From Reclinomonas americana ATCC 50394 (lineage: Eukaryota), in assembly GCA_048213135.1 (NCBI GenBank), contig PS015169.1, positions 1 to 53,793 of the forward strand: a stretch of 53,793 nucleotides of DNA, given 5' to 3'. The translations under genes were made by a program, and so were the position numbers. How positions within the stretch are numbered: the stretch's first letter is position 1; each line of letters opens with the position of its first letter. Under the pieces are notes generated by a model, which had not been told where the DNA came from, did no database searches, and saw only the letters and a list, made by a program, of their open reading frames with translations. Positions 6,089-49,402 of the stretch are shown piece after piece.

Positions 6089-7095
6089 TTCTTCTTGCGT
6101 TCTCTCGCGAATTGATGCAAAGTGATGGAGATTAAAACGGCTATGAAAAGATACTGCCGCTTCAATCAGATTTTCAACCCCGACACAGTGGGCATGCCTG
6201 TGGACCGATGAGCATGCCTGTGGACTGACTGTGGTGGAGGTCACTTCCAGTCGATCTGCATGCCAATAACCACAGCAATGCGCAAAACGCGTACGAATTC
6301 GAATATCCATATTCATGATCAGAAGATCTGGAGAAACTGTGTGTTTTTCGGGCCCTGTTTTTGCATACCTATATTGTTATTGTGCCGAGGCCATTGTCGG
6401 CAAGCAACAACAAATTCATTCACCAACAAACAAGCAACAGCTGTCTTGATGACCAAGTTCAACCGTACGCGTATCCAAAACATCAACACAGACACCAATC
6501 TTGAGGCAGCAGCAGGTTCCTTGTGTGTGTTAGGGCATTTGTCGCAAAATAGCAATGTGGTGAATGAAGTGTTTTGTTTGCGAGATCGATCTAGAGTTCG
6601 AATCAAATATCTCATCGATCACGGCCGACAAGCCCCTCCCGCAATTACCACGTGCTTTCAGAGTGCTCAACCCAGGCAGTAGTGTTCGATACTGCCTCAA
6701 GCCACCACCGATATGAGCCCCACAAACAACATGACAAGCTCTCTTTTGTTTCAACCACACCACCAACGTACGACACCACCACTGTTTTTGCTCTGCTTGN
6801 NNNNNNNNNNNNNNNNNNNNNNNNNNNNNNNNNNNNNNNNNNNNNNNNNNNNNNNNNNNNNNNNNNNNNNNNNNNNNNNNNNNNNNNNNNNNNNNNNNNN
6901 NNNNNNNNNNNNNNNNNNNNNNNNNNNNNNNNNNNNNNNNNNNNNNNNNNNNNNNNNNNNNNNNNNNNNNNNNNNNNNNNNNNNNNNNNNNNNNNNNNNN
7001 NNNNNNNNNNNNNNNNNNNNNNNNNNNNNNNNNNNNNNNNNNNNNNNNNNNNNNNNNNNNNNNNNNNNNNNNNNCTCTCTTCTCTTCTTCTCCTT

Positions 7096-7215
7096 TCCTC
7101 CTCCTCCTCCTCCTCCTCCTCCTCCTCCTCCTCCTCCTCCTCCTCCTCCTCCTCCTCCTCCTCCTCCTCCTCCTCCTCCTCCTTCCTCCTTCCTCCTTCC
7201 TCCTCCTTCCTCCTC
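7096..7215. repeat. (CCT)n microsatellite next to N-gap 6800-7074
   Basis: Directly visible. Confidence 0.95.
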
Positions 7216-7290
7216 ATCTCTCCCTGTCCCTGTCCCTTTCCACCCATCCCTTCCCCCACACCCTTCTCCATCCCTTTCTATATATCACAG

Positions 7291-13474
<6,184 letters not shown>

Positions 13475-13617
13475 GCCCCGCGGCAGCAACGCCGACCAGC
13501 CAGTTGAATACAGTGAACGCCATCAAGGCAACGAAAAAATTGATATGAGTTGGATCTACTCATTTGTTATAAACTCACTTCTTCAGCACTGCGCACGACA
13601 CGGGGGACGATTGTCGG

Positions 13618-17500: not shown

Positions 17501-18260
17501 GAGACGCAAAGTGAGCACACACAAACACACACACTCCTGCACACTCTTGCACTTAAAACACACACTTTGGCACACATAACTCTCACAAACACACACAAAC
17601 ACACACTTTTGCACACACAAACACACACTTTTGCACACAAACACACACAACATACAAAACACACACACTTTTGCACACACAAACCCCCACAAACACACAC
17701 AAACACACACTTTTGCACACAAACACACACATTTGCACACAAAGACACATATAGTTCTTCCTTTCACACTCCTCTTCTTTCNNNNNNNNNNNNNNNNNNN
17801 NNNNNNNNNNNNNNNNNNNNNNNNNNNNNNNNNNNNNNNNNNNNNNNNNNNNNNNNNNNNNNNNNNNNNNTCTCTCTCTCTCTCTCTTCTCTCACCAGTT
17901 CTCCTTATCCTCCGCGCCCTTTGTCGCATCCTTCAGCCGCACCCGCACATCTCCCGCCACTCCATTCGGAGTTGGTCCCATGACGCTCGCCGAGGCGCCG
18001 CCCTCACTCAGTCCACTGTTGCGAAACGCGGGAACCCACACGGCAGGGATGTTCATGTGGAAGCCAAAGTGAGGCACCGAGTATAGCACCTCGTCGTCGG
18101 CGAGTGGCAAAGGGAAGGACTCGGCAGCTGGAGCTGCTGCACTGCCACTGCTGCTGGATCCGTGATCGTGATCGCATGCTTCTCCGTGTTCGTGATGGTG
18201 GTGGTGGCCGTGGTGACTGTGATGGTGAGGGCAGCCTGGGTGGTGCTGGTGGCCGCTCAT
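13618..18260 (-). CDS. Protein with His/Cys-rich N-terminus and three tandem PsbP/Mog1/DcrB-like repeats (~14 introns)
   Basis: ATG at 18260 (MSGHQHHPGCPHHHSHHGHHHHHEHGEACDHDH). Three internal repeats begin LYSVPHFGFHMNIPAVW, LYVSHKSRYSLAFPCHW and WYINERDRFKLPALEGW, and each ends in a beta-strand plus amphipathic helix (e.g. ATFDDFEPVFRQFMLSNL). The fold call is by motif resemblance only. Confidence 0.7.
14340..14640. repeat. Purine-rich (GAAA/GA)n intron tract
   Basis: Directly visible. Confidence 0.9.
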
Positions 18261-23133: not shown

Positions 23134-25029
23134 CTTTCTGTCTCAGACAGTCACTCATTCTCTCTCCCTCCCCTCACTTCCTTCGTCCATGAGTTGGAGC
23201 TGCACCCTCTGTACCTCGCTTGTATTCTCACCCCGTTTCTCTCACTCTCACTCTCTCACTCACAATCGCTCTTTCATTGCATGTTGATGCAGGTACAAGT
23301 GGGAGGAGCTGCACCTTTTTGTTCTCACCTCTGTTCTCTCTCAGACACTGTCTTTCTTCGTCCGTCAGTGGCGCTGCACCTTCCATGCCTCGCTGGCATT
23401 CTCACCTCCTCTCTCCCTCGCTCTTCTCCTCTCTCAATCCACTCTATTCTGTCTCTCTCTCCCCCCTCTCCCTCTCCCACCCTTTCTCCCCCCTCTCCCT
23501 CTCCCACTCTTTCTCTCTCTCACTCTCTCCCTCACTCTTCTCCTCTTTGACCCCTCCCAGTGGCGCCCTGAGCGTCGACTCAGTCTTTGGCAACCTCGGC
23601 GACGATGATGACGATGGCGGAGCCCCGGCAGCACCCACGGTCACTCCCCCTCACCCGTTGCCTCTCTCTATCTATCTCTCACACACGTCTCTCAGATCAC
23701 CAAAGGCAAGGCCGCGGTGGCCAGCTCACGCGCCACTCTCATGGCCGAGGCCTACCAGCGACAGCTCACCAAGAAGCAGCAGGATGACATGGCGGCGGCG
23801 TTGGCCGCCGACCCCACCGCCTTTGACTATGACTCGCACTTTGACGATATCCACAAGTTGCGCGCACACACACGCACGTACGCCTTCTCCTCCTCCTCCT
23901 CTCACCATGCTGCAGGCAACGCGATCAGAACCGCCAAGAGGTGCTGGCACGGGCGGCCGACAAGCGACCGAAATACATGGACCTGTTCATGAAGACGGCG
24001 GAGGAGCGGAAGCGTGAATTCGAGCGGCAGTACGAGAAGAAGAACCTGCGGGAGCGCCTAAAAGACGACCATCTGTTCGAGGACAAGGAGAAGTTCATCA
24101 CGTCGGCGTACAAGCAGAAGCTCAAGGAGGACAAGCTGTGGGAGATTGAGGAGGCGCGCCGCGAGGAGGAGAACAAGAAGCTAGATGTGCGCTCCAAGAC
24201 GGGCCTGGAGGATTTCTACCGCCACATGCTCAACACGGGTGGCGCCAGTCGCTCGTCGTCGGCTGTCGACGGCGAGGACGAGAAGATGATGGAGAAGGAG
24301 CGAAAGCGGTTGGCGCAGGAGGAAGTCATTTCGGCGCGCATTCGCGAGCAGTTTGAGCGCGACTGGGAGGCACGCGAACGGGCGGCTCGGCGAGGAGAGA
24401 GTGCTGGCGAGGAGGCGGCAACTGCTGGAGAGGGTGCTGGCGACGGAGATGGAAGTGAGCGACCGCTCAGTATGCTGGAGAAAGCCAAACTGCAGCGCGA
24501 GCGTGTGGCTGCTGCATTGGCTGCTGCCGCCTCCGCCGCTGCCTCCTCTGCGGAGGGTGCCGCGGAATCACCACCGCCTTCGTCATCGCGTCGCCGGAGT
24601 GCTGAGCACACGACCGGGTCGGGAAGTGACGGCGATGGCCACGATGCAGAGCCGCCGCGGAAACGCGCCAGACACGGATCGCCGCCACCCGCCGGCGCCA
24701 CGGCAGCTGTGGATGCCACGACACCCACGTCGCCGACGGCGATCGCAGCAACGTCTCCGGCGGCGGAGAGTGCTGCGCCGATGCTGGATCCTGTCGAGGA
24801 ATTGCGTCTGCGACGGGAACGGGAGGCCAAGGAGGAGGCCGAGCGTCTGGCGCGACTGCGAGAGGAGTACAAGAAGCACGCGGTTGACGAGAGCGCCATT
24901 AGCAGCGCACGGCAGAGGGCACTGGAGCGCCGCCAGCAACGTCAACAGCAACAGCAGCAGCAGCAGCAGCAACAACAGGCACACCATCATCACCACGGTC
25001 ACCACCACCACCAGCATCACGCCACATGA
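22720..25029 (+). CDS. NSRP1: Nuclear speckle splicing regulatory protein 1 (CCDC55/DUF2040 family), 3 introns
   Basis: Motifs QYGLIL, ADPTAFDYDSHFDDI, PKYMDLFMKTAEERKREFER, KEKFITSAYKQKL and C-terminal AISSARQRALER, followed by a polyQ/polyH tail. Confidence 0.88.
22839..22960. repeat. (GT)n-(GA)n microsatellite at the start of NSRP1 intron 1
   Basis: Directly visible. Confidence 0.95.
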
Positions 25030-25098
25030 GACTCAATGCACCACGTACGATGCGGTTGAGTTCACATACAAATGTTTTCACTGAATAGTTAATCTGCG

Positions 25099-28000
25099 CT
25101 ATAGTTTTCGGATTAGTAGGTAGGCCTTGGTGAGGCCTTTGCCCTTTAGCATCACTTCCCTCTCCTCGAAGAGGTAGTGGTCGAATGCGATTTCGTAGCA
25201 CCGCCGACTGACCTGCACGACGACACGAACGAAAAAAATCGTCAATAATCTCTTTTCTTTGCATCAACGAGACACACAAACACACACCTGGATCCTCATC
25301 GGTTCGCTGCTGCTTTCCAGTCGCGAAGCCACGTTAACATTGTCGCCCCACAGGTCGTACTGGAATCTCTTTTGCCCAATGACGCCGGCGGTGACGGAGC
25401 CCATGTTGATGCCGATGCGGATCTGAATGCCGTTCTGCCGTGCAATCTCCAAGAACGAGAGCGCACACTCAATCATGCTAAGCGTGGCCTTGGCCACAGC
25501 TCGCGGATCCGTGGCACCCAAGCCAGACACGGCCATGTAAGAGTCTGTGGCATTACTCAGGTAAGTGCCCGACACCTTTCTCGACGTCTGTGCTTCACCC
25601 CACTCATGCCTGGCACCTTTCTCTCCTTCTCTCCTTCTCTCCCCCTGCCCTCCCTCCCTTCTCCCCGCTCCTCCCCACTCACCACCAATAGTCTTGATCT
25701 TGGTGACGCCGTGCTTCTCTGCCGCCTCATCCATTTGCGTGAATAATCTGTCGAGCAGCTCCACGAGTTCGATGGACGAGATGTTGGAGGCCATGGAGGT
25801 GAACGACACAATGTCGCTGAAGAGGATCGTCGCAAACTCGTGCGACTCGGCAATTGGTCGCTCGCCGTTCTGCAGGCGCACGGCGACATGCGGTGGCAGA
25901 ATGTTGAGCAGCAGCTCGCTGCTCTTCTTCTTCTCCACCGCGAGCAGGCGTTTCTGGTTTTGTCGCAGAGTGACGTCGCGGAAGAAGCACGTGAAGACGC
26001 TGGTGTTGCCGATGGTACCGAAATTCAGCGAGACCTGTTCCACAAAAATACAAAGTGTGAGCGTCAAAAGGGCGGGGCGGTGAAAGAGGCAGAAGCAAGT
26101 GCACTCTCACCTGCGCGGGGAACACGTCGGCAATGTGCATGCCGACCACCTCCGACGCCTGCACCGATTCGCCGTCGTGTTCGCTCGTGGAGCGGTTGGG
26201 TGAGGCGTGGCTGCCGCCGTTGGTGTTCGGCTCACCGGGCACGGGCACGGGCACGGTAAGCGTGCTGGCTTTGCGGCTCGCCTGATTGCCAGACTGGCGA
26301 CTGCCGTGGGCGGTGACCGACGATCCGCCACGTGCCGGCGTCCCGTGTGCACCCACGCGGCCGCCACCGACGACACCCGGAGTAGCCGGTGACAGTACTC
26401 GCGACGGAGTGCGACCGGCATGCAACCGTGTGGGGCGAGTCGGCGATGCCACGTCCTCCCTGGTCGTACCACGGTCGGGAGAACCGTCGCTCGACGACGA
26501 CGAGCTGGCATCGAAGTGCTGCTCGAGCACCTCTTGGGCCAGCGGCGCGCCCACATTAGGGGCGTAGCGAATGCACTTGTACTGCGCAGAGAGTTGAGGG
26601 TATGAATGAGAGGAAAGGTAAAAGAGGATGAGCTCACCAGTCGCTCAAAGGTTCGTCCACCGGCCTGCTTGCCGGCAACGTGGCTCTGCACTTCGCGAAG
26701 GATCGATTCGAAACTGACTGGATCGAAAACAACCGACAGCTGCACGTGCATCATACAGACAATGAGTGGGAGGTGACGAGGCAGAAAAGGAGAGCAGAAA
26801 GGGACGAAACATTGCGGCCGACGACCAATGAGCTCTGCAAGCCAAACATTTGCTCGGCTGACTTGTTGACATTGATGATCACGCCGTTGCTGTCGAACTC
26901 CATGAAACCGTCGGCAGCCGTCTCGAGAATGCGATGCATGCGCACTTCGCTCTCGTCCACCACCTAGCAAACAAGTATGTGTGAGTTGTGGGCTGCGGTG
27001 GAGCCCCCACTTCCTGTCACACCTTGTCGATTTCTCTCTCGTCAATCTTCTTGCCGTCGATGAGGAAGGAGCGGATGGGGTTGACTTCGGCAATCACTGA
27101 CGGCGGCAGCATCAGCAGCAGCTTGATGGTGCGCTTGTTCTGTATTCGGCAATGCAGCAGTGAGTGACCATGTCTTCGGTGATGATCACACATACACACT
27201 CGCACAAACCTCGTCGTCCAGATGACGGATGAACTGACGCAGACCAAAGAGGTACAGCGAAGGGATAATGAAGAAGGACAGGCTGAAAATCACGTCCATG
27301 GCGGTCTGGTAAGCGTGAACACGCGGCGAGTAGGCGCGACGCACAGCACTCATCAGATTCGAGTACTTGGTCTGCAGCGCACCCGCAGCAATGGTCACTG
27401 CGAATCACCAAATCACGTCAGTTTCTGCGCTCCACATATGATGTTTTGTGGCCCGCGACGCAACTGAGCACGGCAGTATCGACCAGTTTGTCCGTCTGGT
27501 TGTTGTAGACGGCCGAGGCGGTGGAGCTGACTTGTCGCAAAATGACGTCGGTGGAGTAGCAGTCGACAGAGGTTACCAATTCGCACGAGGCCTGGAACAC
27601 CGCCTGCACACCACCAACAAGAAAGGATGAGTACTGACTGACTGCAGTCTGTTGCACTTGCGGTACACATGCGGCGACACGCAACATCAGTCAACGCGGA
27701 CTCCGCCACCAGTGCCGGAATGTTCTGGTCCGCGTCTCCATAGGCCGTGTCTTGCCATAAGTCATCGAATTTTTGATACGCCGTGTATAAACTCGCTCTG
27801 CAGTGTGCGTTTCGTGCAGAGCGAGTGAGAAGAAATGTGTGTGTATGTTGGGAAGAGAAGATTCCGAGTCAGTACCTGGCCACGGTCAGTTCCGAGGGAC
27901 TGGTGGTAAAGGCCACGCGCAGTGTCTGGTACGCCGTCCGCCACGCCGAGATGCCCACACTCTGCGCATTTTCCATAAACACCCAGCACGGGAAAAATAC

Positions 28001-31000
28001 AGATGGAACCGCAGAGCATGGTACGCACCGCCGCCGAGTAGATGCTGTTGATGGTGGGATCGTCTTGATTGGAGCTGGTAATCATGATGCTCGTCATGGC
28101 AAAAATGATGCTGGTGACCACAATAAGCACGATGGAGTAGGCGATAATCAGCTTGGTCAGGCCCGAGTTGTTTGTCGACACGCTGCTAGCTGCTCGACCA
28201 GAGAGAGTCAGTGAAAAATGAACCCCATGATTGGCTGCTGAAGTAAAAGTACGTACCAACACGTGCGCTTCCGAGACGGCTGGCCGTATTGTCGTTGCCG
28301 TTCAGCATGCGCGAGCACTCGGCCAGCAAGTTGTTCAGATGGCGGTAAATGCGCGTGATGACGTACTTTGGAATGAGCTGGAAGAGCGACAATGTTCTGC
28401 ACCGCAAAAAAGGGTCTTGAGTTTCGAGGAGACACGCACAACCCCCAGTGCGCACAATGCTCACCGCTTTCGCTCGTTCACGGCCGACAAGAACGACGGA
28501 ATGCTGAAGAGGCCGGCGAACAGGAGGATCGAGGCGCACGAGATTGCTGAAATGACAATCATGGCGCGGTGCGAGTATGACACGTTGCTCCGCACCGCCT
28601 GCATCACGCAAATAAATGTCAGCACCACGGTATAAGAGAGCAATGTTGATGTACACACTCAGCAACGCACCGCCAGACTGGCCACCACCACGCGACCAAT
28701 GGCATCGGCAAACGCATCACCAATGTTGCCAAAGATGAAGCGATAGGCCTGCTGGCACACGGCAGCAGTCGGTGTCTTGGTGCACTGTGGTGGAAAACAG
28801 ACACGATCATGAGCAATCGATATTACACAAACACACACGCAGAGTGCACTCAACTGTGGCGCTCGACAAGATACCCAGTTGTGTGAGCATCTCGTGACTC
28901 GCGTCCAGGAGCGGCAGGCTGGTGGTGCTTTCGCTCAGGCTACCATTGGTGCCGACAATCAGCGTGCGATAGGTCGTCAGCGAAGTGGTCGCCTGGATGG
29001 TGATTGCCGACTGAGTGAACGTGGTGATTTGCTGTAGTAGCGATTGATACTGTGTCGCAAAGGTGACTCGGTGTCAGATATCTTCAGAGACAATAGCAGC
29101 AGACATGCGCCGAGCAAACCTGCGTGACCAATGTCGCTAAACCGCTGGCAATGGTGGCGTCGGTGGGTTTCGCAGCCGACAGCAGCAGTTGATTACCGAG
29201 CCGTTCCACTGTGACTGCGAAATCCACCACCAACAGCAGACAGTCGGCGGGATCCGCGCCCGTCTGCTTCGGCGACAGCATGTGCGACATGGAGTCCGAC
29301 ATTAGCATGCGCGACGTGACAAACATGACAATGATGATGGCGGCGGAGAGCAGCAGCACCAGCCACTGCATGCACCAAAGTGAGGACGAATGCAGTCGAT
29401 CTTCTGTTCATCTGCGAAAGCACAACAACGCACCACTTGCATGCGCACACGCCACGCCACCGATGACTTCTTGTCATCCAAACGCCTCCGAATCTCGTGA
29501 TACTCCTGGTCGACGCCGCGGAATGTCACGCGAGTCATTTCCGTGGGAGCACCGGCGTCGGATCCCGCACGGGTTCGTGCCTGCAGACGAGGGTGATCAG
29601 CGAGCTGCGCAAACCAAACGTCTTCACATTGAACACGCACCATGGCGGGTGCCGCGCTCTGTACTGCCGCGCCCTCCAGGGCAGTACGGTCCAGCCGACG
29701 AGCAGGAGTAGGGCGGATGCGTGATGTCAATGCCTCGTCGTAGGGTGACAGATCGGGGGCGGCCAGTTGATTTGCAGCTTGCTCATGGACCATGAATGAT
29801 GTCATTTCTGCGCGCGCGTGTGTGTGGTCAGTGAATGGTGCTCGTGTGTTTGATGGCAGAGTCACTCACCAATGTTTGTGCGCTGGTCCTGTTGCCTGTG
29901 GCTGCTCTGCGGCGTGCCGTACACGGGAGGCGGAGTGAGCTGTCCACCGATGGCTCCGGCGCCATTCATGCCCGTGCTCGAGGGCGGGGCAATGGCAGGT
30001 GGACTGCTCAACCACAAGTGAGTGACGACGTACAAGGAAGGAAGGAAGGCACAGCGCTTGCCAAACGCACCCCGTCATCATGCGAGCCGTGTTGGGCGGC
30101 ACTGGACTCGTGACACCGTTGCCGCCACCGCCGAGGCTATTCGGGAGGCTGCCGCCGGGATTGCCGGTAGTGGCCGCGAACCCGGATGCCGGCTGCTGGA
30201 ACGCCGCCCACATGTCTTGTCCCATGGGTTGTTCCTCGAATTGGTCAGCGGCTTCGAGCAGGTCGGCGGCACGCAGTGGACTGTTGGCGGAGTAGTGAGT
30301 AAGCAAAGGCGCGACTATGCACAACACTCGTCATCACGAAACTCATTATCAATGTCGTGGATCCAGCGAGCGTACGCGCGCAACAGGCTGGTGCTGTTGG
30401 GGAATTCGCGAAGCAGACGCGCGTACAACACAGCACCTTCCTCTTCGCCGCGAGCTGCACGCACAGCGATGGAGGCTGTGAGAGGCCACATTCAAGCCAA
30501 TACTGTTTCAACAAAGACAACAAACCAATGCTCCAGATGGTGGCCGCCGTGCTCGACAAGTCCGTGTCGGAGCGCATAAAGTTGTGCCAGAAATGACTCA
30601 TGTGAGTCAACACATCCTGTCGCCGCATCTCCAGCTTGTGCAGTGCGCGCGTCAGGTGCTTATTTTCTGCTCCAGGAGTAGTGCCCTGCACGTCGTCGAC
30701 AATGAGCTGCATGATACGCAGCGTCATCACCAGGTCCGGCATGTTGGCGTTCTTGCGCGACCGCAGCAGCTGCAGAGGAGAGCAGCGACAGTGAGCTCGT
30801 TGGTATGAGGAAGGCGGTGAGGAGAATGAAGCACAAATACAAACCTTGCACAGAGTGGGAATAATCGCAAATGCCGATTGCTCGGGTGTGTTGAGCAGGT
30901 AGATGGCGTAGGCGAGACGCAAGGAGAGCGACTTGGGGAACTTTTTCTGTCCCGCCATGAACACCTCCTCGGCGAGTGACTTGTCCAAGGCCCCGAGTCG

Positions 31001-32343
31001 CACCGCTTGCTCCACCTCGTGAGGAGAGTCGCACGACTCGAGCAGCGCGTCCACAAACAGCTCTTCCGCAGTCGGCATGTCCTCCCGCGTCGAGTCGTCG
31101 GCTGTCCGCGTCTCGATCGGATCGGTCAGCAGGTTAGGATCGGTGACCGCATACGCGGCGCTTCGTGCCTGCGCGCACAACTTGTCAGCCGTGCTCCATT
31201 GCAAACACAAACCATTCACACGTGCTCGTACCTTGTTCATCGCCGCCGCACGGAGATTCTTGACCGTGTGCTGGAGGGCCCACACTCGCAGATACACCGT
31301 GGCGAAGCCAAGGAGAGCCGAGCCACCGACCGATGCCGCCAGGGCAAGACGCCACTGCTGCGTTTGCAACCAGACACCCGAGAAGAAGGCGAAGGTGTAG
31401 AGCGAGAACATGGTGGCGTTGGAGCTGACCGAGAGGTGCGGCAGGTATTTCAGCGTGTACCACGCTCCAATGACTCCACCGGAAATCAGGCAGGCGACCT
31501 GGAGGCACACGATAAAATGTTCAGAAATGGTCACACAAGCCACAATCGTTGAAGTACACGCAACAGTCAGCGTGGTCGGCATCAGTTCGAGGGAACAGAT
31601 AATGACAGCAATCTGGTACACGTGCGTGTAGAACCAGATGCGACCGTTGACGGAGCAGGTGCACATGTTGACGTCCTCCTGGCTGTGCTGAATGAACGTC
31701 AAGTAGTACAGCGGCACAATGCAGAGGACCAGCGGCACAGTTCCTGTTTCCCACGTATGAGTGAGTGCTCATGTGAACACCCGGAAGCGCGCAAGGAAAC
31801 CACTCACCGACAAGGAGCACGACAAAGCTGACGGCCACCGTGCTGTCACCGAGCGACGAGGGGTAGTCGCTGATCATCGACACAATGGTAATCATAAAGG
31901 CCGGGGCCGTACATGTGGACAGCGGCAGGAGCCACACTACACCCGACAGGGCGTAGCCGCTCTGCAGCGAGCGCGAACTGCGTCGGGATGCGCTGACCGA
32001 GTGCTGCCAGATGACCACCACCAGACACAGTGCCAGCAGCGCCATGTTGCCAATGGCCGTGTACGAAATCACCGAGTGTACCAGAGTGCCCCACGGCGGC
32101 AGCACCGCGCTGCGCTGCCAACCCCACAAACCAAACACCGCGGCACACAGAGTCACGCGGAGCCAAAACAACAGATCCCATAACGCGGGTGGCACACTCG
32201 AGTGCACCTGCACATGATTGGTGAGTCATGTGCTCTGAACACAAAGGCACTCGTGGCGGTCAAACGTACCTCGAGGCGCAGAGCATGGATCAGCGACGCA
32301 TGCTCTTCGTACCAGCGTTCCCCGTTGACATTTACACCACTCC
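25099..32343 (-). CDS. TmcB-like multi-TM, PAS-domain class III adenylyl cyclase, paralogue A (~26 introns; start codon unresolved, upstream of 32343)
   Basis: N-terminal TM bundle; helical region (LLRAYARWIHDIDNDPLRAADLLEAADQFEE); TM-flanked ectodomains; PAS (ILETAADGFMEFDSNGVIINVNKSAEQMFG...FTCFFRDVT); cyclase (LLLNILPPHVA, ILFSDIVSFT, KIKTIGDSYM, QYDLWGDNVNVASRLES). K and D residues indicate ATP specificity. Stop at 25099-25101. Confidence 0.9.
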
Positions 32344-33247
32344 TGCAGCGTGATAAGAATTGTGAGTGATCACTGGACTCATATCTTCAGTGCGTGAGAG
32401 ATGTGAGATGGGTGACCAAGTCTGGCACATGAAACTTTGATATTGAAACAACACGAATTCTTCAGCTGGGAGTATACACGCACGTGCGTGTATGTGTGAG
32501 TGTGTGAGAGAAGAAGAGAGGATGAGAGGAAGAGAGAGAGTGTGTGTGTGTGTGTGAGAGAGAGAGAGTGGAGATCGACTGTGCGCTCGCCAGTTGTCTC
32601 TCGCTCCCTTGCCATCGTGTGCATACACAGCGTCACACTCACTAATGTGTATATACAGTGTCCACTGTGTGAGCGTCTGTGTGTGCTTCTTGAATGTGAC
32701 GAGTGCGTCGTCGCGACATACCACAATAAAGAACACCCATTCTCAGATTGCTGTTTTGCACCCCCGGCTCATACACGCACTCACACACACGCACACAGAT
32801 TAACAATGGCACTCACCCCAAGCCCAACAGCTCATCGTCAGAGGTCGATGTGTCCACCGCCGACCGCGACGACATTCACTTCTCTCACTCACACTCACAC
32901 AGCAAGACAACACTGTGTTCTCCTCTCGTCTCTCACACACAGAGAGAGCAAGCCAGAGAGAAGAAGCGTCGAGGGAGGGAGGGAGACACTCGCACTCACA
33001 CACTCACACACACGCACACAGGTAGACACACTGAGCGCAACGTTCTCTCGCTCTGACTTTTCTCCAACAAAAACGGAACTGCAATCTCAACGGTCGAAGG
33101 CATTTTCGTCGCGTCGGAGGAGAAATTGCATTTCAGGCACACGCTTTCGCTCCCCTCGCCACGCACCAAGGGTGTGCATGCGCGGTTGTGTGTGTGCGTG
33201 TGTGCAAGGGATAGAGAAACCGTCTCCAGAGAGCGAAGGAGGCGGCA

Positions 33248-36200
33248 ATGGAAGGTATTCAGCATGTAACGTTGACACGTCTGTTTCGCCCGCTTGGGCG
33301 TTACGCCCTCTCTCTCTCTCTCTCCCCACACACACGCAAAGAGACGCACACAGGTATCCACTCTCTCCATCTTACGCTTCTCACACTCACCGCAGGTGGG
33401 AATCCGAACCTACCAGCCACAGCGCACACCACTGGCACTCGAACTGAACACGCCTTCACTCGCACGCACCACCATGCCACTGCGGGAGCCTTGAGCATTG
33501 CCACCTCGGCTCCGGGTTCCGCCGAGGCCATTCACCGCACACTGCACGGCTCACTGGCATACAACCTCATGCAGCTGATATGGTCGCTCAGCAGGTAACA
33601 TTGATATTAATGTCATCCTCGCGACGTGTGATGCTCACCATATATGTGTGCAGGGAGGTGGAGTCGTTGCGGCCGCGATGGACAGTGTCGGCTGCCACTC
33701 TTGCGCACTTTGTGCTGGCCTGTTTGCTCTCCGCCACGTGGCCGGTGGTGCAGCGAGAGGGTGCTCCGTATGTGGTGTGGCTCATGAAGCATCAGGGCGG
33801 TGGCGTCGTGCATGCGGTGTGCACGGCGGTGTTGTCAGTGGCGGCAGTGGTGTGCACGCTGGCGGTGCTGTACGTGGTGCTGGCGGCGCTGGCGGTGTAC
33901 CGATCGTGCCGACAACACGGTGCCTTTAATGATCGCACCCTGCACCGCTTGCTGGCCTGGTGGCTGGTGTCGGCATTCGGCCTGTGGCCAGCCGCACTGG
34001 CCTTCCTCCAGCTCATCCAGGTGGCCATCGATGCGCGCCGAGCACTGCTCATGCCCACGGCCTTGTGGCAGACGTCGCTGGTGCTCATGTCGATTGGCAT
34101 GATCACCTTGCTGCTCACCGCCGTGCCGCTGTACGCCACATTCATGCAACGGCGCAGCGTGCTGCCGAACACTCTGTTCACCGTCAGCGTGCACAGCCGC
34201 AGCCTGCTGTGGTTGCTCATGGTGGAGCTCGCAATATTCGCGTGCGGCCTCGCACCCTTGCCCATTGCTCTGTCGGTTCGCCTCCTTTCTTTGCCTGTCT
34301 GCCTCGCCCTCGCCCATTGCCTCTCCTCATGCACTGCATGCGCCCCTTCCTTTTGTGTCTTGTGGAACTGGTCCATAGGTGGCGTGCCAGATCGTCTGCG
34401 GCTTCATCGGCTGCCTCTACGCTCGAAAGACGCTGCCGTTTGCCTTTTCCATCTCAAACATGATCATGGTGGCGGTGTTTTCCTTCTCGGTTGTCTCCGG
34501 TATAGCGCTGGCCCTCGACTCGCTGATTGCCTTGGCATGCGCGCTGCCGGTCGCGATGTTGGTGAGTGCGCACGTGCACACAGTCCGATTGCCTCTGTCA
34601 TGCTCTCATCGTCGCACGCAGGTGGGTTTTGTGGCCGTCCGCACCCGTGAGCGCGCTGTACTAAGCAAACTTTCCGCTCTGGCGGTGCGTGCCAAGCAAA
34701 GAGTTGCGCGTCGACACCTCGTTTGCAGTGTCCCCCGGCATCCAAAAGTCCTCCCTGGATCCCTCCCTGACCCAGTCTGTCGTTGCGCAGGCGGAGGTGT
34801 ACCGAACCGACACCAATGCCGCGCCCAGCACTCAGCAACTGCCCGACGAGACTGGTGAGGCGACTGCCAATCCGGCCGAGGACGCCGCGCACGAGGCACA
34901 GCTGCTGCAGGACCGCGAATTCTGTCGCACGATTGTGGACAACAGCGCTTCGGAGGCCGAGCTGTTGCTGTGTATTCGCTTTGTGCTGAACGGTCTGCAA
35001 GCGCAAAGTGGCGAGGAACTGTTTGCCATGGCGCACGAAGCCATGCCCACAAGCGTGCGTCTGCACTTGCTGCACGCCATGTTCCTCGATGAGCTGGTCG
35101 GACGCGAGATGAGCCATCGTGTCGCGCCTCGTGTTTCGCGGGTTTGTAAGAGCATTCCCTTCCTCTCTCCGTCTCATACCTGCCCAGTGTGTCTCATTCC
35201 GAATCGCCCGCAGACGCTCGAGGGCTTTGAGAGCGCTGCAGCACCAGATCTGCGCTTCTTTGTCATGTGCTTTCACTTTGCGCAAATGGAGAACGTGGCC
35301 ACGGGCTCGCCGACCAACAAGAGTGTGTACTGGCGTGTCCGGCTGGCGGCTCAGCTGCATCAGCGTCTGCTCGGGCTGGTGGGAGAGTTTTGGCGTGCCT
35401 TCCTGTCGCCTGTGCCGTGCGAGAAGGCGCTGTCGAAGATTGTGTCGGAGCTCGGTGAGTGACATGGATAGGCAGCGACTGCGGCAGGTTTGCTGACTTT
35501 GCGTTGTGCAGCGGTGAACAATGATCGAGTCCGCGGCATCTTTCGTGGCCTCATTCAGGAGGCACCGCGAGATCCGGCAGTAGTACGAGCCTACGCTCAT
35601 TACGGTGCGCTGGACCATTCATCTGTTCTGTTTTTTTGTTTGCATTTCTGTGGCTCACTGCGTTTGCGGCAACAGTGGAAGACATGGAGAATGAGTTGCG
35701 TCACGCGTTTGGCATCGTCTCACAACAATTAGCTCCTCACTGGTGTGTCACACAGCGAGGTGACCTCCAAGCTGCTGAGGCGCCGTGCCGACGTACTCGA
35801 GGACGATGCGTCCAGTGTTCGCCGTGGTCGCCGACGGAAACGTCCAGCCACATTCCTGCGTGCTCAGTTGCGTGTGGCGACCGTGTCTCCACTCCACACA
35901 CTTGTACGTTGCACTCAATCCGTCTTTCCTGCACCACAGAACTGCTGTGGGCGCCGACGCGGAGCCACAACTCCCGCCGCCAAATGGGATTGCCAGAGGG
36001 GCGCCGCTGGCGCTCTCGCCCATCAGCTGCGAATCGTCGGTTGGCTCGACCTCACCGGTACACATGCACTCGCCTTGCACGCCCCTCCACATGCCGTCGT
36101 TCGTGCCGTCGCCGTTGGCGGACGCCGACGGTGCGGCTGTCGTGCGTCGGCGGTCCACAGCGCCAATTGGTCCGTGGCAGGCAGCGCCGGGCCTCAATGA

Positions 36201-39200
36201 ATCGGCCAGTCTCATTCGCCCGCTGCCTCGAGAGTCTCGCTCGGCCTCGTTGTCGGGGGCGGCCGTGGCAGCGGCCGTGGCCATGGGACTCGGCTCGGCA
36301 AGGCGAGATTCGGTGCGCACACACGAGCAGGGTGCATCGCACGCCCAGATGAACGCGACAGCGAGTCCGCTCGGCTCGCCAGCATCCTCGGTGCAGCAGG
36401 AGCAGCAGAGACTGCGCGAACTGCCACCTGTGCAGCTTCACAAACCCTTCAATGCCGACGCCGCCTGGCGACCCAACGTGCCCGTACCGCCGCAGTCACG
36501 CAGAACTTCGGTGGTTTCGGCGGCGGCTCCGAGCTGCGCCGTCCCCGCAGCGGTGGACTTGGCGAAGGCTCTCCAAGACGCGGCCGACATGGAGGCGCTG
36601 GAGGAGTCCAACACCTCGTGGCTGTCGCACCACTTGCAGCAGCTGCCGTCGATGGGTGCCAATGGTGTCGCCGTCAGCGATGACTTGGACTCGGACGACG
36701 ACATGGCGGCGCGCGAGGTGGCCGGCCGCATGTCGACGCCGTTGATGGCTGCGCCCAATGGCATTCTGAGTCCGGTGCAGGCTGCAATCTCGACAGCACC
36801 GTCGGCATCCAGCAGCGCGGCCACCTCCCAGTCTCCCAAGCTCACAGGCATTGTGCGGCCGGCATCACATTACGGCCTGCTTGCCGGAAGCGCGAACGGT
36901 GTGGCGGACGACCTGAACGGCACCGACAGTTCCCTTCGTCGGCCGTCTGCGTCGATGGAGGCAGCGGCTGCAGGTCTCGGCGTCGCCGCGCTTTCCGATG
37001 ATGTGCCGACTGCAGAGCTTGTGCCGCGGGTGGTTGGTGCTCGGCGAGGAGGCAGGTGGTGGGGTGGCAGACACGCTGGTGGCGCCGGCAGGCGAACACA
37101 ATCATCCGTGCCTGCCGTAGAGTCGCTGGATCGCGAAAGCCGACGTTCGAGTGTCGCTCAACCGCTACCACCGCTACGTCTCTCCGTGGGCGGAGACACC
37201 GAGAGCGCGGCAGTCGGTCCCGGTGAAGTCGCAGGCCGTCGTATGTCGGCCAGTCACGCCGCCATGGCTCGAGCCAACGAGGACGCCATGTCGATCAGTG
37301 GTGGCGGCGGCGACATGGTGGGAGCACACACGCTCATCGACCGTCTGGTACGCACCAGAAGCGGTGGTCGTCGTGTGACGCAGAACTTGGGCAGAGGGAC
37401 CGACGACAGCGATGCGAACAATGGTGACGACAGCGATGTCGAGGATGGCAGGTTTGTGCTTCGACAGAACCGCGGAATGCGCCACAATCAGCAACGCAGC
37501 AAGCACACGGCTCACGCACGATCGGCGACGATGCCTGGTGTTCCTTCGTCGCGCGACCTTGCTCTCGACTTTATAGACTCGCCGACTGGCAGGGGTGTCG
37601 GTGTTGGCGGAATGGGTGGCGCAGGAGTCGCTGCTGGTGGTGTTGCTGGTGGAGTCAGCAGCGGTGGGACGCCCGTCACCTTTGCCAACGACACGCAGAC
37701 CAGCGGCGGTGGCGGTGGCGGGTTGCGCGGGCTGGCCCCGCAGGTCAGCATCGACCTGACACCCTCCACCGCCACTGGTATTCCGTTGTCGCCGAACGAG
37801 CAAGACGATGCGGACGATGATGGTCGTCACGGTGCAGATCCAGAGGCCGAAGACATGCAGGTATTTGACCGCATAGTGTGTGATCCGTGGTCCCTTCCTT
37901 TGCTCAATATTGTGAGCCACATCAGAATGCTGGCATGCCACCACGGCTGCAGAGCAAAATGGCCGCGAAGCGTGAGCAGCTGCAGCTGATGACCATCAGA
38001 TCGCGGCTACAGTCGCGCAAGTCCACTGCCGTGTTCCGACTTACCACACAGGCGGTGAGTTGGACGGCGTGACACATGCGGTGGACCACCACCAACTGAT
38101 TTCGTTTTGTGTCACACAGTGGGTCATTGTTCTCGGATTTCTCGCCTTGGCGCTTGCGCTCTTTGTGATGAACCAGAGTGTCATTGAGCAGCAGACGGCG
38201 GGGACTGAGCTGCTGCCTTCGCCACCCACGCCAAGCGGTGATCTAGCACCCTTTGCAGCCTGGGCGGCATTCTTGGTGACAAATTCGCGAGCCGGTGCGT
38301 GCACTCTGTTTGTTCTGCGTTGCATGTGCACGCTTCCTATTCTGCTCACCTCATCTTTCTACCTGGGTAGCTCTCGCCATCTCCGACATGTACACGGACT
38401 TGCTAGCCACCGCCACAATTCAACCATCGGGCCTCTCTCAGTTTGCCGCCACAGCCGCAGCACAGGTTTGTGTCGCATTGTTTTTCTTTGCCAATGAGGA
38501 CTCGATTCCCACTTTTGCGGCCCAACGCAGGTGCAATCCGCGTATCGTTCCTTGCACGCGCTCAGTCTGTCAAGTGAGGCCACGGAAGCACTGGAAAGCA
38601 TGATACCCACTGTGGTGGCTCCTGCTGGCACCGCCACCAGCCCGTCGTATGTGATGACAACGCAACGCCTGTCCAACCTGAAATTCGAGGTTGTGATGGC
38701 CACACAAACGGCGGCAACGGTGCGGGGGAGCGTCAAGGCGTCAACACGCTTCTCTTCTTGATCTTGCTCATCATTGCTTTTGCCATGCAGTGTCTGGCCA
38801 CTGGCAGTGCTGGTGCACTGAGCGACCCGGGGTGCGATGCGGCCGCTCGTCGCGTTTTCTACAATGGCAACGAGTCGCTACAGGCGGAGTTGCACGAAGC
38901 CACCGACGAAATTGGCGACGTGAGTTGAGGTGTTTGGCCATGAACTTAACTCGCCGTTGCTTACACGTGCCGAGGCAATGCAGGCTCTTGCGACGTCGAG
39001 TCGGTCAACCTTTTTGTTCAAAACATTGGCGGCAGCCGGCTCCTCATTGTTGGTACTCATTGGCATCACGCTGATCACCATTCCGTCATTCCGCAGTGCC
39101 ATGCGTGAGCGCCTCAAGTTCCGTTCCTGTATCCCTTATCCCGTGCCACACTCTCATCGACTCATCCGTTCTGTGCTGCGGCGGCAGTGTTATTGCGCTC

Positions 39201-42160
39201 TTCAAGCTGGTCCCCAAGACGGTGGTTCGACACGTTTACAAGCGCATCCGTCGCAAGCAGATGTTCTTGGCGTCGACCGCCACTCGGTCTTCGTCGGACC
39301 ACAACCAGTGCGGGGCGGCAGGCAGCGTGGCCAATGGTGTGAGGGAGGGGTCCAGTCGTCGACCGTGATCCACACGCATGCACTCACTCACTCTTTTCCC
39401 TCTTCGGCGCAGGTCACACTGCCAGTCTCCGCAAGCTGCTGATTGTGTTTGCCGTGTGCGTGACCATCTTCCTGACGCTCACCATGGCGTTCACCATCAT
39501 GCACTCGATGTTCGGCAAGGTGCATGGCGACGTGCTCAATCAGCTGTCGGTGATGTCGGTGAGTGAGTGCAACCGGCATGGTGATAAACAACCTCGTTCG
39601 GTAATGTGTACTGACATGGTGAAACAGCGCTTCGATTCGTCGCTGTATGCGGCTGCCAACTCGGTGGTGCAGCAAGCAAGCGGGCAGACGATGGATGAGA
39701 GCACGGCCAGGTGAGAGAGAGCTGAACGACATCAGTGTTCGCATGCAGCTCGCTCACTCGGGAGTCTCGTCACAGAGCCAATACTGCAGGGCACTTGAGC
39801 ACAGCTCGCGAGTTCTGGGACTTAGTGGTGTTTGGTGCCGAGGCCGGCAGCGAGTACTCGCAGGCTGGCCTCCTGGGCATCACCGACACTCTCACGCAGG
39901 CGCTCACTGGCCCTCAATGTGACGACATTTCGCTGAGCGCCTGCAAGTCCACTGACGCGCTCGTCCGTCGCCTCTTCTCACTCCTCGGAAGGCTCTCCGC
40001 CGATTCGACCTCACTACGTGGCGTCAAACTGGACTCGGTCGCCGACTGGAACGAAGTCGGTGCGCACGTGCCATTGAGCGTCCGTGTGCGCTCTCCCCCC
40101 CACGTGTGCTTACTTTGCACTTGTGCGCCTGTGCAGTCGATATTCTCACGAATTCTGCGCTGTACACGAGTCGCTTCGCGCAAGTGCAGAATGCGTGGTA
40201 CCAGATGTACTCGCCAATCATCGTCAGCTTCAGTGCCGCCAACAGTGCCCTAATTGCCGTGTGCTTTATCGTGTTCCCGCTGTTGTACACGATCCTGTTG
40301 CAGCCGCTGATTGCGCATATCGCGAGTGAGGTGCGTGGTGGAGAGAGAGGGTGGTTGGAAGGGAGAAAGAAGTGCAGTTGCTCATTAGGGAACTTGATCT
40401 TGCAGCACAAGCAAACGATGCAGTTGCTTCTTATGTTGCCGCTGCCGGTGATGGATGCGATCGCGCCGATCCACACGTTTGTGATGGGCGGCGATGGTTC
40501 ACTCGCCTCCAGCGAGAGTCACCACCTCGTGCAGCAACGGCAACAGAAAATGCACAAGGTTCTGGAGACGGCCGCCGACGGTTTTATGGAGTTTGACGAG
40601 AGCGGGTGTGTCAGACAGTTGAACAAGTCGGCAGAGCTCATGATTGGGTTGCCGGCGACGCGGCTGCTGGGTGATGGGGTGAGTGCGGGGGGGTGTACAG
40701 GAAAAAAGGAGTGTTTGTGCCGCTGCTCACTCCTTGCGGGTGTGCAGATGAAGCAAGTGTTTGATCCACGTGGAGTGAATCAGATCCGACTGGAGGTGCA
40801 GGACTACATCAAGGGTCGACAAGAGACGCGCATGTTTGAACGAGAGGTGAGTGGGGAGCTTGACGCAGGAGTGCGTGCGCTGGAACTGACATACTACCGG
40901 TGCCACAGATGAATTGCATCCGCTGGGACACGTTCTTGGGCGAGGGCGATGTGCCGGTGAACGACGAAGGCATGATTGGTGACGAGATGCTGACGGACGC
41001 CGACGACATGCACGTGCAACTGTTGCATGCCAAGTCGAGTCTGTTCCCCGTGTGGGTGAGTTCGAAGTAGCGTCGCGCTGCAAGTGAGGGAGACTGCATC
41101 TCATGGTGTGCCTCGCAGGTCTCGTTCCATTTTAGTCGCGTCGGCGAGAACCACATATTTACGTGTTTCTTCCGCGACTTGACGCAAGAGAAACGACGAC
41201 AGCAGCACCTTGTGGAGGAAAAACTGCGCAGTCACAATCTGCTCCTCAACATTCTGCCGAGTCGTGTTGCGTCTCGAATACAGAACAAAGACTGGCCAAT
41301 TGCCGACTTGTACGACCGAGCCTCTATTCTGTTCCTCGATGTTGTCGGTGCGTGACCGCGTTCTCCTCGCTCGTGCATGAGCATGAAAATGATGTATGTG
41401 TGCAGGATTCACGGCGCTTGCCGCCACCATCTCGTCCATCGAGCTGGTGGAGATGCTGGACGACCTCTTCACCAAGTTTGACGAGATCTCCGAGGAATTC
41501 AACGTGACGAAGATCAAGACGATTGGTGACTCGTACATGGCGTGCACGGGTCTGGAGGCGCACGATGAGGCGGCTGCCGCTCGCGCTGCGGTGTCACTGA
41601 TCGAAGCCGGCCTGAATTACATTGAGACGGCGGCTTTGATGGGACTGGCGGTGCGTGCACCTGTGCAACGACGCCGCGATGCTGATGTGCAGAAAACATA
41701 AGAAGCGCTTATTATATATATTGTCTCATCGCATAGATTCGAGTCGGTGTTCACACTGGCCCGGTGACGGCGGGCGTCATTGGTCGCAAGCGCTTCCAGT
41801 GGGATATGTGGGGAGGTCAGTTGCATGTATTCCTTTCTCTCTCTTCTGTTGTGTGGGCACGTATTCTGACGCAGGCGCTGTGTGGCAGACACGGTCAATG
41901 TGGCCTCTCGCATGGAGTCCACCGGTATTCCTATGCACGTGCAAGTCAGCGAAAAGACGGCCAGCATGACACGAGACGCGTACATTTACGAGGAGCGCGA
42001 GGTGGATGTGAAGGGCAAGGGCCTCATCACCGCCTTCTTGTTGGTGGATCGACCGGAGGCGCAGGCACTCGAGCAGCTGATGTTTGACGAGCAAATGATG
42101 ATGCAGCAGCAGCAGCAGCAGCAGCAGTTGGCCACGGAGGGGAGCTCGCAGTTGCTGTAG
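33248..42160 (+). CDS. TmcB-like multi-TM, PAS-domain class III adenylyl cyclase, paralogue B (~28 introns)
   Basis: Same architecture as paralogue A plus a ~640-aa low-complexity exon (35940-37860). PAS: VLETAADGFMEFDESG. Cyclase: LLLNILPSRVA, ILFLDVVGFT, KIKTIGDSYM, QWDMWGDTVNVASRMES, VKGKG. PolyQ tail; stop at 42160. Confidence 0.9.
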
Positions 42161-46532: not shown

Positions 46533-48021
46533 TTATTCGTGGTCGGCGGTCGAAACGCAGCCGGGTGAGGTCTGAATCATGCGCTTGCAGCACGACCACT
46601 GCGCGTGAGAGATGGTGAGTAGGCGACTACACAAGAGCGCACTGGAAGCAAGGAATGCGACGCACTCGCTGCAGGGGAGGGACAAGAGAGCGGAGTGAGT
46701 TGCAACGACAAATGCATGAGAATGCAGTTTGGAATACGCAACATACTGCAGTCGGTATCCAACGAGGCGAGACGCAAGAGGGGAAAGGGAAGTGAGTTAA
46801 TGATACAGGAACGCGGGCAAGCAACAGACGCACATTCTGCGATGAGGGCGAGCGATGAGTGGAAAGCGCAGATAATGAAAGGATGAATGCGAGCGTGCAC
46901 GATACCTTCCATTCGCCCGTGTGTCGCACGCACGCTGGATTGGAACGTTCCTGGCCACAGCGCGAGCACTACACGTCGCACACGCATCGCAATGTCAGCA
47001 TGATACGCTATATGTGCGAGACGGCTAGCGAGCGACAAACCGTGCCCGTCGCCGCGCTGCCTCCCGCTGCTGCCGACGATGCTGCAGATGATGACGAGGA
47101 CGATGTTGCCACAGCGGTCACGGTCGGGGGTGCCACTGGCGGGAATGGCTGGTGCGGGGTCAAGAGGGGGGCGGGACTCACGGCCGGTCGTCCCTGATGT
47201 GCATACAAACAAGCGCAGAATGTCAACCGCATGTGGAACAGGAAAACAGCCACACTCGTCTCTTTTGGCACACTCACCAACAGCAGTCTCTCCAGCTGGT
47301 CGGCGGCGCCGGTCGGCGGCTCAGCCACCTTTTCGGGGTTGAGAGTGACGGTCAGTTGGCTGTCGTCGAGAGTGAGGATCATCGGAGCCTGCAGAACCCC
47401 ATGAGCGATCCGTGAGTGCACGATGTCGACGATGGCAGACGCAACTTCGGCCTCCAAATCAGGCTGCACGCAGATCGGTCGGTCGCCGAGTCGGCCCTGG
47501 AATCGCGGCACCGATAGCACGCGGCAAATGCTGTGAAATAGTCAGACAAGGTCTGGATCGCCCCCTCTCTCTCTCTCTCCTCACTCCACGCAACTCGGCG
47601 ACGACGCGATGCACGGTCGGATACAAAATGTCGCCGAGGTGAGGCACGAGAGAGGCCGGTGACAGTGTGGCAAATGATACAGTGTCGACGACCAGCTGGC
47701 CACCAATGCCGGCCGCCTGCATCTCTTGCCGCGCACGCACCAGACTGGACACGTGAGCGGCCAGCGACGGACGCGCCAGCACCAAATGCTCCTTGTCGCC
47801 CTGAATCAGCTGGCTGGCCGGTCCGCGACCAATGTCGTCGCGCAGACTGTTAATGGCGTCGGCCTAAATGAAGGAGAGGAATGAGTTGAGAGGCGGGGGG
47901 AGGTGAGAAAAGGGCAAAACTGGGCGCACCCATTGCTGCGATTCGGCGGCGGTTCGACCTGCAAGGAACAAGAGAGCGCGGGTTGGTGAAAGAGGAGGGA
48001 AAAGGGAGGAGAGAGGAGAAG

Positions 48022-48067
<46 letters not shown>

Positions 48068-49402
48068 ATGCACGTAGTAGGTGCGATCGCCAGTGACCAG
48101 GTGCAGCACAAAGGCGCACCCCGGCAGCGTGTCGGACACCTGCGGTCCGTCGACTTGCACGAGGTCGGTGACGGGGATGCTTCGGCGGGGTTTCGACTGG
48201 GGGGAAGAGATGGGGAATGGGTGGATGAGGGGGAAAGGGAAAGGGATTGGGGCAAAGGGGTAAGGGGAAAGGGGGCGAAGGAAAAGGGAGCGGAGGGGTG
48301 GGGAGAAGAACAAGGAGAAGGGGGAGGAGAACAAGAAGAAGACTGAGAGGAAAAGGAAGAGAAGAAGAAGAATACATGTGAGAACAACAACAACAAGAAG
48401 AAGAAGAAGAAGAAGAAGAAGAGAGAGACGACGTAGAGACGTAGACGNNNNNNNNNNNNNNNNNNNNNNNNNNNNNNNNNNNNNNNNNNNNNNNNNNNNN
48501 NNNNNNNNNNNNNNNNNNNNNNNNNNNNNNNNNNNNNNNNNNNNNNNNNNNNNNNNNNNNNNNNNNNNNNNNNNNNNNNNNNNNNNNNNNNNNNNNNNNN
48601 NNNNNNNNNNNNNNNNNNNNNNNNNNNNNNNNNNNNNNNNNNNNNNNNNNNNNNNNNNNNNNNNNNNNNNNNNNNNNNNNNNNNNNNNNNNNNNNNNNNN
48701 NNNNNNNNNNNNNNNNNNNNNNNNNNNNNNNNNNNNNNNNNNNNNNNNNNNNNNNNNNNNNNNNNNNNNNNNNNNNNNNNNNNNNNNNNNNNNNNNNNNN
48801 NNNNNNNNNNNNNNNNNNNNNNNNNNNNNNNNNNNNNNNNNNNNNNNNNNNNNNNNNNNNNNNNNNNNNNNNNNNNNNNNNNNNNNNNNNNNNNNNNNNN
48901 NNNNNNNNNNNNNNNNNNNNNNNNNNNNNNNNNNNNNNNNNNNNNNNNNNNNNNNNNNNNNNNNNNNNNNNNNNNNNNNNNNNNNNNNNNNNNNNNNNNN
49001 NNNNNNNNNNNNNNNNNNNNNNNNNNNNNNNNNNNNNNNNNNNNNNNNNNNNNNNNNNNNNNNNNNNNNNNNNNNNNNNNNNNNNNNNNNNNNNNNNNNN
49101 NNNNNNNNNNNNNNNNNNNNNNNNNNNNNNNNNNNNNNNNNNNNNNNNNNNNNNNNNNNNNNNNNNNNNNNNNNNNNNNNNNNNNNNNNNNNNNNNNNNN
49201 NNNNNNNNNNNNNNNNNNNNNNNNNNNNNNNNNNNNNNNNNNNNNNNNNNNNNNNNNNNNNNNNNNNNNNNNNNNNNNNNNNNNNNNNNNNNNNNNNNNN
49301 NNNNNNNNNNNNNNNNNNNNNNNNNNNNNNNNNNNNNNNNNNAAGTAGAGAAGACGAAAGAAGAAGAACGTAAGAAGAAGAAAGAACGAAAGAAGAAGAA
49401 GA

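Follow-up and report, generated by a model that had tools for sequence, protein, structure and literature searches.

Two divergent cyclase genes with two forms of donor

The 53,793-nucleotide contig PS015169.1 of Reclinomonas americana ATCC 50394 (assembly GCA_048213135.1), analyzed here over its whole length of 53.8 kb and called the window below, is eukaryotic DNA with many short introns, and it contains two divergently transcribed paralogous genes, A and B, nearly all of whose introns begin with one of two forms of 5' splice site (donor), the second of which reads like the first slid one base into the intron and follows exons that do not end in G. Gene A (25098..32341, minus strand) is a multi-transmembrane, PAS-containing class III cyclase with Pfam matches on single exons, modelled with 26 introns and 1805 amino acids in a stop-free frame; position 32341 is a frame anchor, the start codon having not been located, and the low end is approximate, with a stop near 25100. 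Its paralogue, gene B (33569..42160, plus strand), begins with an ATG at 33569 and has 27 introns and a stop-free frame of 2229 amino acids, with an approximate high end. All 53 modelled introns are GT-AG. Pfam Guanylate_cyc (PF00211) matches single exons of both genes at 48-84 bits, and Pfam PAS (PF00989) scores 35 bits in A and 21.4 bits in B, just below the curated cut-off of 22.6, so that by Pfam membership both belong to the class III adenylyl/guanylyl cyclases with PAS. The two proteins are 31.5% identical across 1662 aligned columns (MAFFT), and the duplication is old, given that identity is only at this level.

Gene B contains a low-complexity exon of 640 amino acids rich in Ser, Ala, Gly, and Arg (35940-37860, plus strand), which is absent from A, where the counterpart is a much shorter stretch broken by introns 8 and 9. 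The divergent intergenic region of about 1.1 kb (32450-33400) is rich in GT/CA and GA/CT microsatellite runs. The GC content of the window is about 55-60% outside six runs of N, totalling 1797 bases (1253-1272, 6800-7074, 11552-11859, 17179-17388, 17782-17870, and 48448-49342), which are assembly gaps or masked stretches, and the last of these accounts for the apparent dip in GC that the composition profile shows at 48-50 kb.

The introns of A and B were curated by coordinates from the sequence, the open frames, and piecewise BLAST between the two genes. Junctions were placed by frame together with paralogue alignment and, in a third gene (gene C, below), also by orthologue alignment, and the last base of the exon (-1) was never used in choosing a donor.

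Donor class largely follows the last base of the exon

Donors were sorted by rule into class N (G at +5), class S (T at +3 and G at +6 without G at +5), and class O (the rest), which gave 41, 9, and 3 of the 53 introns, respectively. The N motif is G/GTNMGT, where the slash marks the exon-intron border; over 39 N donors, position +3 is G in 28, T in seven, A in three, and C in one, position +4 is C in 15, A in 15, and T in nine, and +6 is T in 27. All nine S donors fit W/GTTNMGT with T at +7, reading GTTGCGT, GTTTCGT, GTTGAGT, or GTTCCGT, and this is the N motif, including the exon G, slid one base into the intron, with T replacing the second G. The two classes thus share a common motif, GKTNMGT, which occupies two positions relative to the cut.

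The class of a donor is closely tied to the base that precedes it. Nine of the 11 introns that follow a base other than G are of class S (six after A and three after T), versus none of the 42 that follow G (Fisher p=1.2e-8, 53 introns). The first-pass annotation, which had pointed out this tie, quoted 12 donor strings, all of which are present, with coordinates that mark the first intron base (+1 G) and not the last exon base. Intron 17 of A (27798-27875, minus strand; donor cag/GTACTGAC) follows a G and has G at +6 and not +5; with T at neither +3 nor +7, it stands outside both classes.

Homologous introns in opposite classes

In the MAFFT protein alignment, 18 intron positions are common to A and B in the same phase, 14 of them aligned exactly by column, two offset by a single column, and two offset by 5-6 columns across gaps (A4/B4 and A15/B17), which leaves eight introns in A and nine in B without a partner. 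Exon length and frame are kept gaplessly across the paralogue junctions. The proposal that the differing donors sit at homologous positions is borne out by this alignment, in which five of the pairs that had been put forward, 31564/34276, 28854/38720, 28464/39118, 26810/40679, and 30342/35695, share both column and phase, and the pair 27464/40060, which had been offered only as probable, is fairly so described, as its members lie one column apart in identical phase.

Six shared positions hold an S donor, and at five of them the partner is of class N. Intron 3 of A (31499..31564, minus strand) has the S donor act/GTTGCGTG in phase 0 before the residues VAC, and its partner, intron 2 of B (34276..34378, plus strand), has the N donor tcg/GTTCGCCT, with G at +5, also in phase 0 before VAC. 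In the case of A intron 12 (28785..28854, minus strand; S donor aca/GTTGAGTG) and B intron 14 (38720..38790, plus strand; N donor acg/GTGCGGGG), both in phase 0 within AT/C, the difference at -1 is synonymous, ACA and ACG both encoding Thr. Within the PAS domain, A intron 22 (26740..26810, minus strand; phase 0) has the S donor aat/GTTTCGTC and B intron 22 (40679..40747, plus strand; phase 0) the N donor ggg/GTGAGTGC, and in the pair that is one column off, A intron 19 (27398..27464, minus strand; phase 1) has the S donor tca/GTTGCGTC and B intron 20 (40060..40136, plus strand; phase 1) the N donor tcg/GTGCGCAC. The sole mixed pair with B as the S copy joins A intron 14 (28397..28464, minus strand; phase 2; N donor gcg/GTGAGCAT) to B intron 16 (39118..39187, plus strand; phase 2; S donor caa/GTTCCGTT).

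At the sixth position, a phase 2 junction in the ND codon, both copies have A at -1 and both are of class S, as had been reported: A intron 7 (30281..30342, minus strand) has the donor tga/GTTTCGTG and B intron 8 (35695..35755, plus strand) the donor tga/GTTGCGTC. The B intron directly follows a 19-nucleotide microexon (35676-35694, plus strand; VEDMEN), which lies between a B-specific intron (35605-35675) and the ND-codon intron and is backed by 13 residues that match gene A without a gap (RAYA...ND). The remaining two S donors belong to copy-specific introns, A intron 18 (27604..27685, minus strand; gat/GTTGCGTG) and B intron 9 (35867..35939, plus strand; tca/GTTGCGTG), both of which begin GTTGCG; the earlier list of S donors holds for those it quoted and was incomplete in leaving out these two.

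The two introns that depart from the rule are both in B, and both face partners with G at -1 in A. Intron 15 (38920..38983, plus strand) has C at -1 and a consensus normal donor, gac/GTGAGTTG, and its partner at 28670 (gcg/GTGCGT) lies in the same column and phase. Intron 4 (34721..34790, plus strand) also has C at -1 with a donor in normal register, ctc/GTTTGCAG, and its likely partner in A, 31231 (aag/GTACGA), is six columns away across a gap; it is the least certain intron of model B, and the one at 38920 is solid. An alternative donor for intron 4, 34687 (gcg/GTGCGT), was rejected, as no acceptor preserves the downstream frame. Moving the S borders by one base, so that the intron would start with TT, was likewise rejected, since this would alter the codon at the junction, and the Cys conserved after the A12/B14 junction agrees with GT-AG borders and not with shifted ones.

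When each shared position is treated as one independent contrast, the class differs in five of the seven pairs in which only one copy has G at -1 and in none of the other 11 ([[5,2],[0,11]], p=0.0025). The claim that class and -1 base change together is therefore upheld at five of seven discordant pairs, though the relation is not as strict as it had been drawn, because the normal donors after C at 34721 and 38920 had been omitted.

A family of introner-like insertions sharing the S donor was considered and rejected. Among all 53 introns, blastn-short gave 59 short hits, the longest of 14 nucleotides between an S intron (A12) and an N intron (A26), and S introns had no similarity to each other beyond the donor heptamer. 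The five mixed positions and the one held by S in both copies, together with this lack of shared intron sequence, argue against a separately inserted S class, in agreement with what had been concluded before, and they would instead mean that the same intron can persist over very long periods as its donor changes register, which argues against separate origins for the two classes. Donors of U12-type introns have an extended consensus of the RTATCCTT kind, and this type was rejected as well, the ATCC core occurring in none of the S donors.

The further claim that the change is reversible and has gone in both directions is not supported as written. There is one duplication with two paralogues, and every mixed pair fits a one-way change, whether from N to S or from S to N, in either lineage. 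Protein searches by word index that took single exons as queries gave no match at E<=0.001, and a metagenome scan with the cyclase exon of A returned seven loci that tblastn aligned to the generic cyclase domain only, at 26-49% identity and without the N-terminal or PAS part, so that these loci provide no third lineage by which the donor changes could be polarized.

S donors in other genes of the window

Donors of the S form are also found outside the cyclase genes. Gene C (7100-13480, plus strand) is a homologue of TTC21/IFT139, with a Pfam ARM_TT21_N match and orthologues found by exhaustive HMMER search; as the protein functions in intraflagellar transport, the organism probably bears flagella. 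Gene C extends across the run of N at 11552-11859, and its model has a frame change between two orthologue high-scoring segment pairs at about 9245-9330. Its first S donor, aga/GTTGCGTC (8443..8506, plus strand), is crossed by the orthologue P0096 at residue 313 without loss (tblastn). A second, cac/GTTGCGTA (11057, plus strand), comes from the gene model, with a downstream exon that matches an orthologue (tblastn). An S-like donor, aaa/GTTGCGCC (12399..12462, plus strand; phase 2), has C and not T at +7 and an approximate acceptor, and its junction is gapless against both P0136 and P0096 (tblastn).

For the rest of the window, automatic dynamic-programming gene models (three runs) proved unreliable, with read-through or invented introns, and were excluded from the statistics. 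A local screen for continuity of open reading frames was applied to 17 further S-like sites, of which three were usable. Two are consecutive donors of a minus-strand gene at 47200-48200, cga/GTTGCGTG (47594) and gaa/GTTGCGTC (47445), in a model that is unreliable beyond 47200, and the third is caa/GTTGCGC (23857, plus strand); for all three the support is frame continuity only. The open reading frame at 23845-25029, a 370-codon frame behind the donor at 23857, belongs to a plus-strand gene that terminates near the 3' end of gene A. The other 14 sites, such as 45410, 46742, 51149, and 18018, had no passing combination or only ambiguous ones and were not counted.

The nine S donors of A and B and these six (8443, 11057, 12399, 47594, 47445, and 23857), the latter with weaker model support, make a set of 15, in which the base at -1 is A in 11, T in three, C in one, and G in none. 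The frequency of A is higher than at position -2 of N donors (13/39; p=0.0018), the position that corresponds to it once the motif is slid. Independently of gene models, the window contains 26 copies of the heptamer GTTGCGT over its two strands, versus 8.8 expected from a second-order Markov model, an excess of about 3-fold that resembles those of GGTGCGT (28 versus 12.6) and GGTGAGT (31 versus 10.3).

Pairing with U1 and alternative explanations

Pairing was computed with the usual 5' end of U1, an assumption that may not match the U1 of this organism and that applies to all the values given here. S donors form on average 3.9 pairs in the canonical register, 6.8 in a register shifted by +1, and 6.8 with a bulge at +3, and the corresponding values for N donors are 7.6, 5.2, and 6.3. 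S donors therefore pair more extensively in the shifted than in the canonical register. The shifted and bulged counts are equal, and so the count does not separate these two; what does separate them is the end of the exon, because a bulge leaves -1 opposite C9 of U1, where G is expected, and a shift puts -1 opposite U10, where A is expected and G is not needed. The 15 S donors have A in 11 cases and G in none.

We consider it somewhat better than even, with a probability of roughly 0.55, that the pairing of U1 with S donors is shifted in register by +1 and that the register evolves with the last base of the exon. In this mechanism, U1 small nuclear RNA (snRNA) would pair one nucleotide downstream of its usual register, with G+1 of the intron replacing G-1 of the exon opposite C9, A-1 of the exon pairing with U10, and U+2 left as the single mismatch. 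The only GU, one base upstream of the junction as defined by U1, would then be used for cleavage by U5 and U6. The association between class S and a base other than G at -1 most plausibly follows from the slide itself, without a separate avoidance of G, since the G required by U1 closes the exon in N donors and opens the intron in S donors. Donor turnover would be constrained in that one of the two registers stays intact, so that upon loss of the exon-terminal G, by synonymous or amino-acid change, a site would survive mainly as S, and the four N-form donors seen after a base other than G are plausible intermediates.

Several observations weigh against this mechanism. The rule is leaky, as two of the 11 introns of A and B without G at -1 are of the N type, both after C, and gene C has, in the model only, normal-form donors after A and C at 10008 (aga/GTTCGTT) and 10232 (ccc/GTGCGT). 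The absence of G at -1 of S donors is not significant against the baseline at -2 of N donors (4/39; p=0.39), and a depletion of G before GTTNMGT, counted without gene models, is weak (2/45 versus a background of 16% before GTT; p=0.04). A pure slide does not predict the strong preference of S donors for C at +5 (14 of 15), given that the corresponding position of N donors, +4, is C in 15 of 39. The predicted S duplexes are weak in every register (mean -2.4 versus -7.4 kcal/mol for N), the bulge at +3 equals the shifted register in mean pairs, and every junction was derived from frame and alignments. It is this weak pairing that leaves the word "compensatory," which the first-pass annotation applied to the S state, as an interpretation, though the part of that claim which says that class changes with the -1 base stands.

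The closest alternative is a bulged register, in which G+1 and U+2 would pair normally, a U at +2 or +3 would bulge, and pairing would resume from +4 to +7, so that the longer helix on the intron side compensates for the lack of G at -1. Its pair count is as good as that of the shifted register, and for the three S donors with T at -1 the shift adds no pair at that position; registers with a bulge at +2/+3 have also been validated in human, where 68 predicted sites are tabulated (PMC4856993). A bulge, however, would leave -1 facing C9 and favor G there as in ordinary donors, which have it in 39 of 41 N donors of A and B, whereas G is found in none of the 15 S donors and A in 11. On balance we regard this alternative as unlikely.

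A similarly low likelihood attaches to a separate factor, whether a variant U1 snRNA or something else, such as U6 or U5 acting first or a protein, that would read the S motif, nearly always GUUGCGU, in its own right. It stays in contention because the S duplexes are weak in all registers and because of the preference for C at +5. S donors are much more uniform than a slid N motif would be: most consist of the single heptamer GTTGCGT, and G predominates at +4, while in N donors A and C are equally frequent at +4, the position that matches +5. Against a dedicated factor, S and N introns are alike in mean length (69 versus 70 nucleotides) and in their 3' ends, as judged by eye from the acceptor contexts, and an Rfam scan found no family and hence no snRNA gene within the window, nor is there anything positive in its support.

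That the S donors are products of hand-built models, or that their tie to -1 is an accident of a small sample, is very improbable, for although a neutral dynamic-programming predictor in its best run recovered exactly only 17 of the 26 curated introns of A and 18 of the 27 of B, so that curation mattered, and although some doubt attaches to B intron 4 and to a few placements in the alignment, the paralogue junctions conserve frame and exon length without gaps, orthologues confirm S junctions in a third gene, the donors were chosen without reference to -1 and yet gave p=1.2e-8 and 0.0025, and GTTGCGT is over-represented whatever the models.

Taken beyond the individual donors, it is possible, and to us slightly less than an even bet, that the +1 shifted register of U1, perhaps also of U6, constitutes a second major class of 5' splice site in this organism, used by about one intron in six, and that introns switch between registers over evolution as the last base of the exon changes.

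Implications and comparison with known splice-site systems

If the slid donor is common genome-wide, as sharply defined as W/GTTGCGT, and tied to the last exon base, register shifting would be a routine part of splice-site definition. Such a genome would provide hundreds of natural cases of covariation for splice-site models, as well as a genome-scale natural setting in which to measure to what extent U1 binding and cleavage can be uncoupled in position. Gene prediction would also be affected, as a standard donor model would rate S sites as very weak.

In full-text literature searches, which leave many journals outside their coverage, no published account of such a donor class was found. There are several known systems with which it can be compared. 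Human U1 is described as able to accommodate a one-position shift or a bulged nucleotide in its pairing with donors (PMC4856993), and such noncanonical registers, worked out with minigenes in human cells, are treated in these accounts as a small minority of sites (PMC4856993, PMC11162779), together about 1.5% of human sites (PMC11162779).

Registers with a bulge at +2/+3 or an asymmetric loop (Roca et al. 2012; Tan et al. 2016, PMC4856993) resemble the S class in having one extra nucleotide between +2 and +5 and in that positions from +7 onward matter. These sites are described as retaining the usual exon end, CAG/ or AAG/ followed by GUUU... (PMC4856993), whereas G at -1 is absent from all 15 S donors here.

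The S class also recalls the dependency between -1G and +5G, in which two classes of donor are tied to loop 1 of U5 and to the ACAGA box of U6 (PMC11732430, PMC8283771), since here too the loss of G from the exon end is accompanied by a change on the intron side. In that framework, as set out in these two sources, the intron side strengthens in the same register, whereas here the conserved G and U shift from +5/+6 to +6/+7.

A shifted register of U6 has been proposed for the tandem donor of STAT3 (PMC11162779), where the cut site and the intron positions that pair are likewise offset by one nucleotide. Unlike the S class, the STAT3 case as reported there is a single human alternative donor, shown by means of a suppressor U6 (PMC11162779).

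The nearest likeness is to the human shifted-register sites (Roca and Krainer 2009, as described in Tan et al. 2016, PMC4856993), which start with GU, have their complementarity to U1 one base late, end the exon in A and not G, and are cleaved at the GU; the oligonucleotide used there for the shifted register likewise has A at -1 (PMC4856993). On the evidence of the window, the S class would be an abundant form of a type of splice-site recognition that is already known, and its link to the -1 base is far from chance. It differs from the human sites in that its motif retains U at +3 and hardly varies from GUUGCGU, and in that those are rare, whereas S donors make up nine of the 53 introns in two genes and occur in three or more other genes. 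The behavior of the paralogous introns suggests that a way of reading splice sites seldom seen in humans is routine in this organism.

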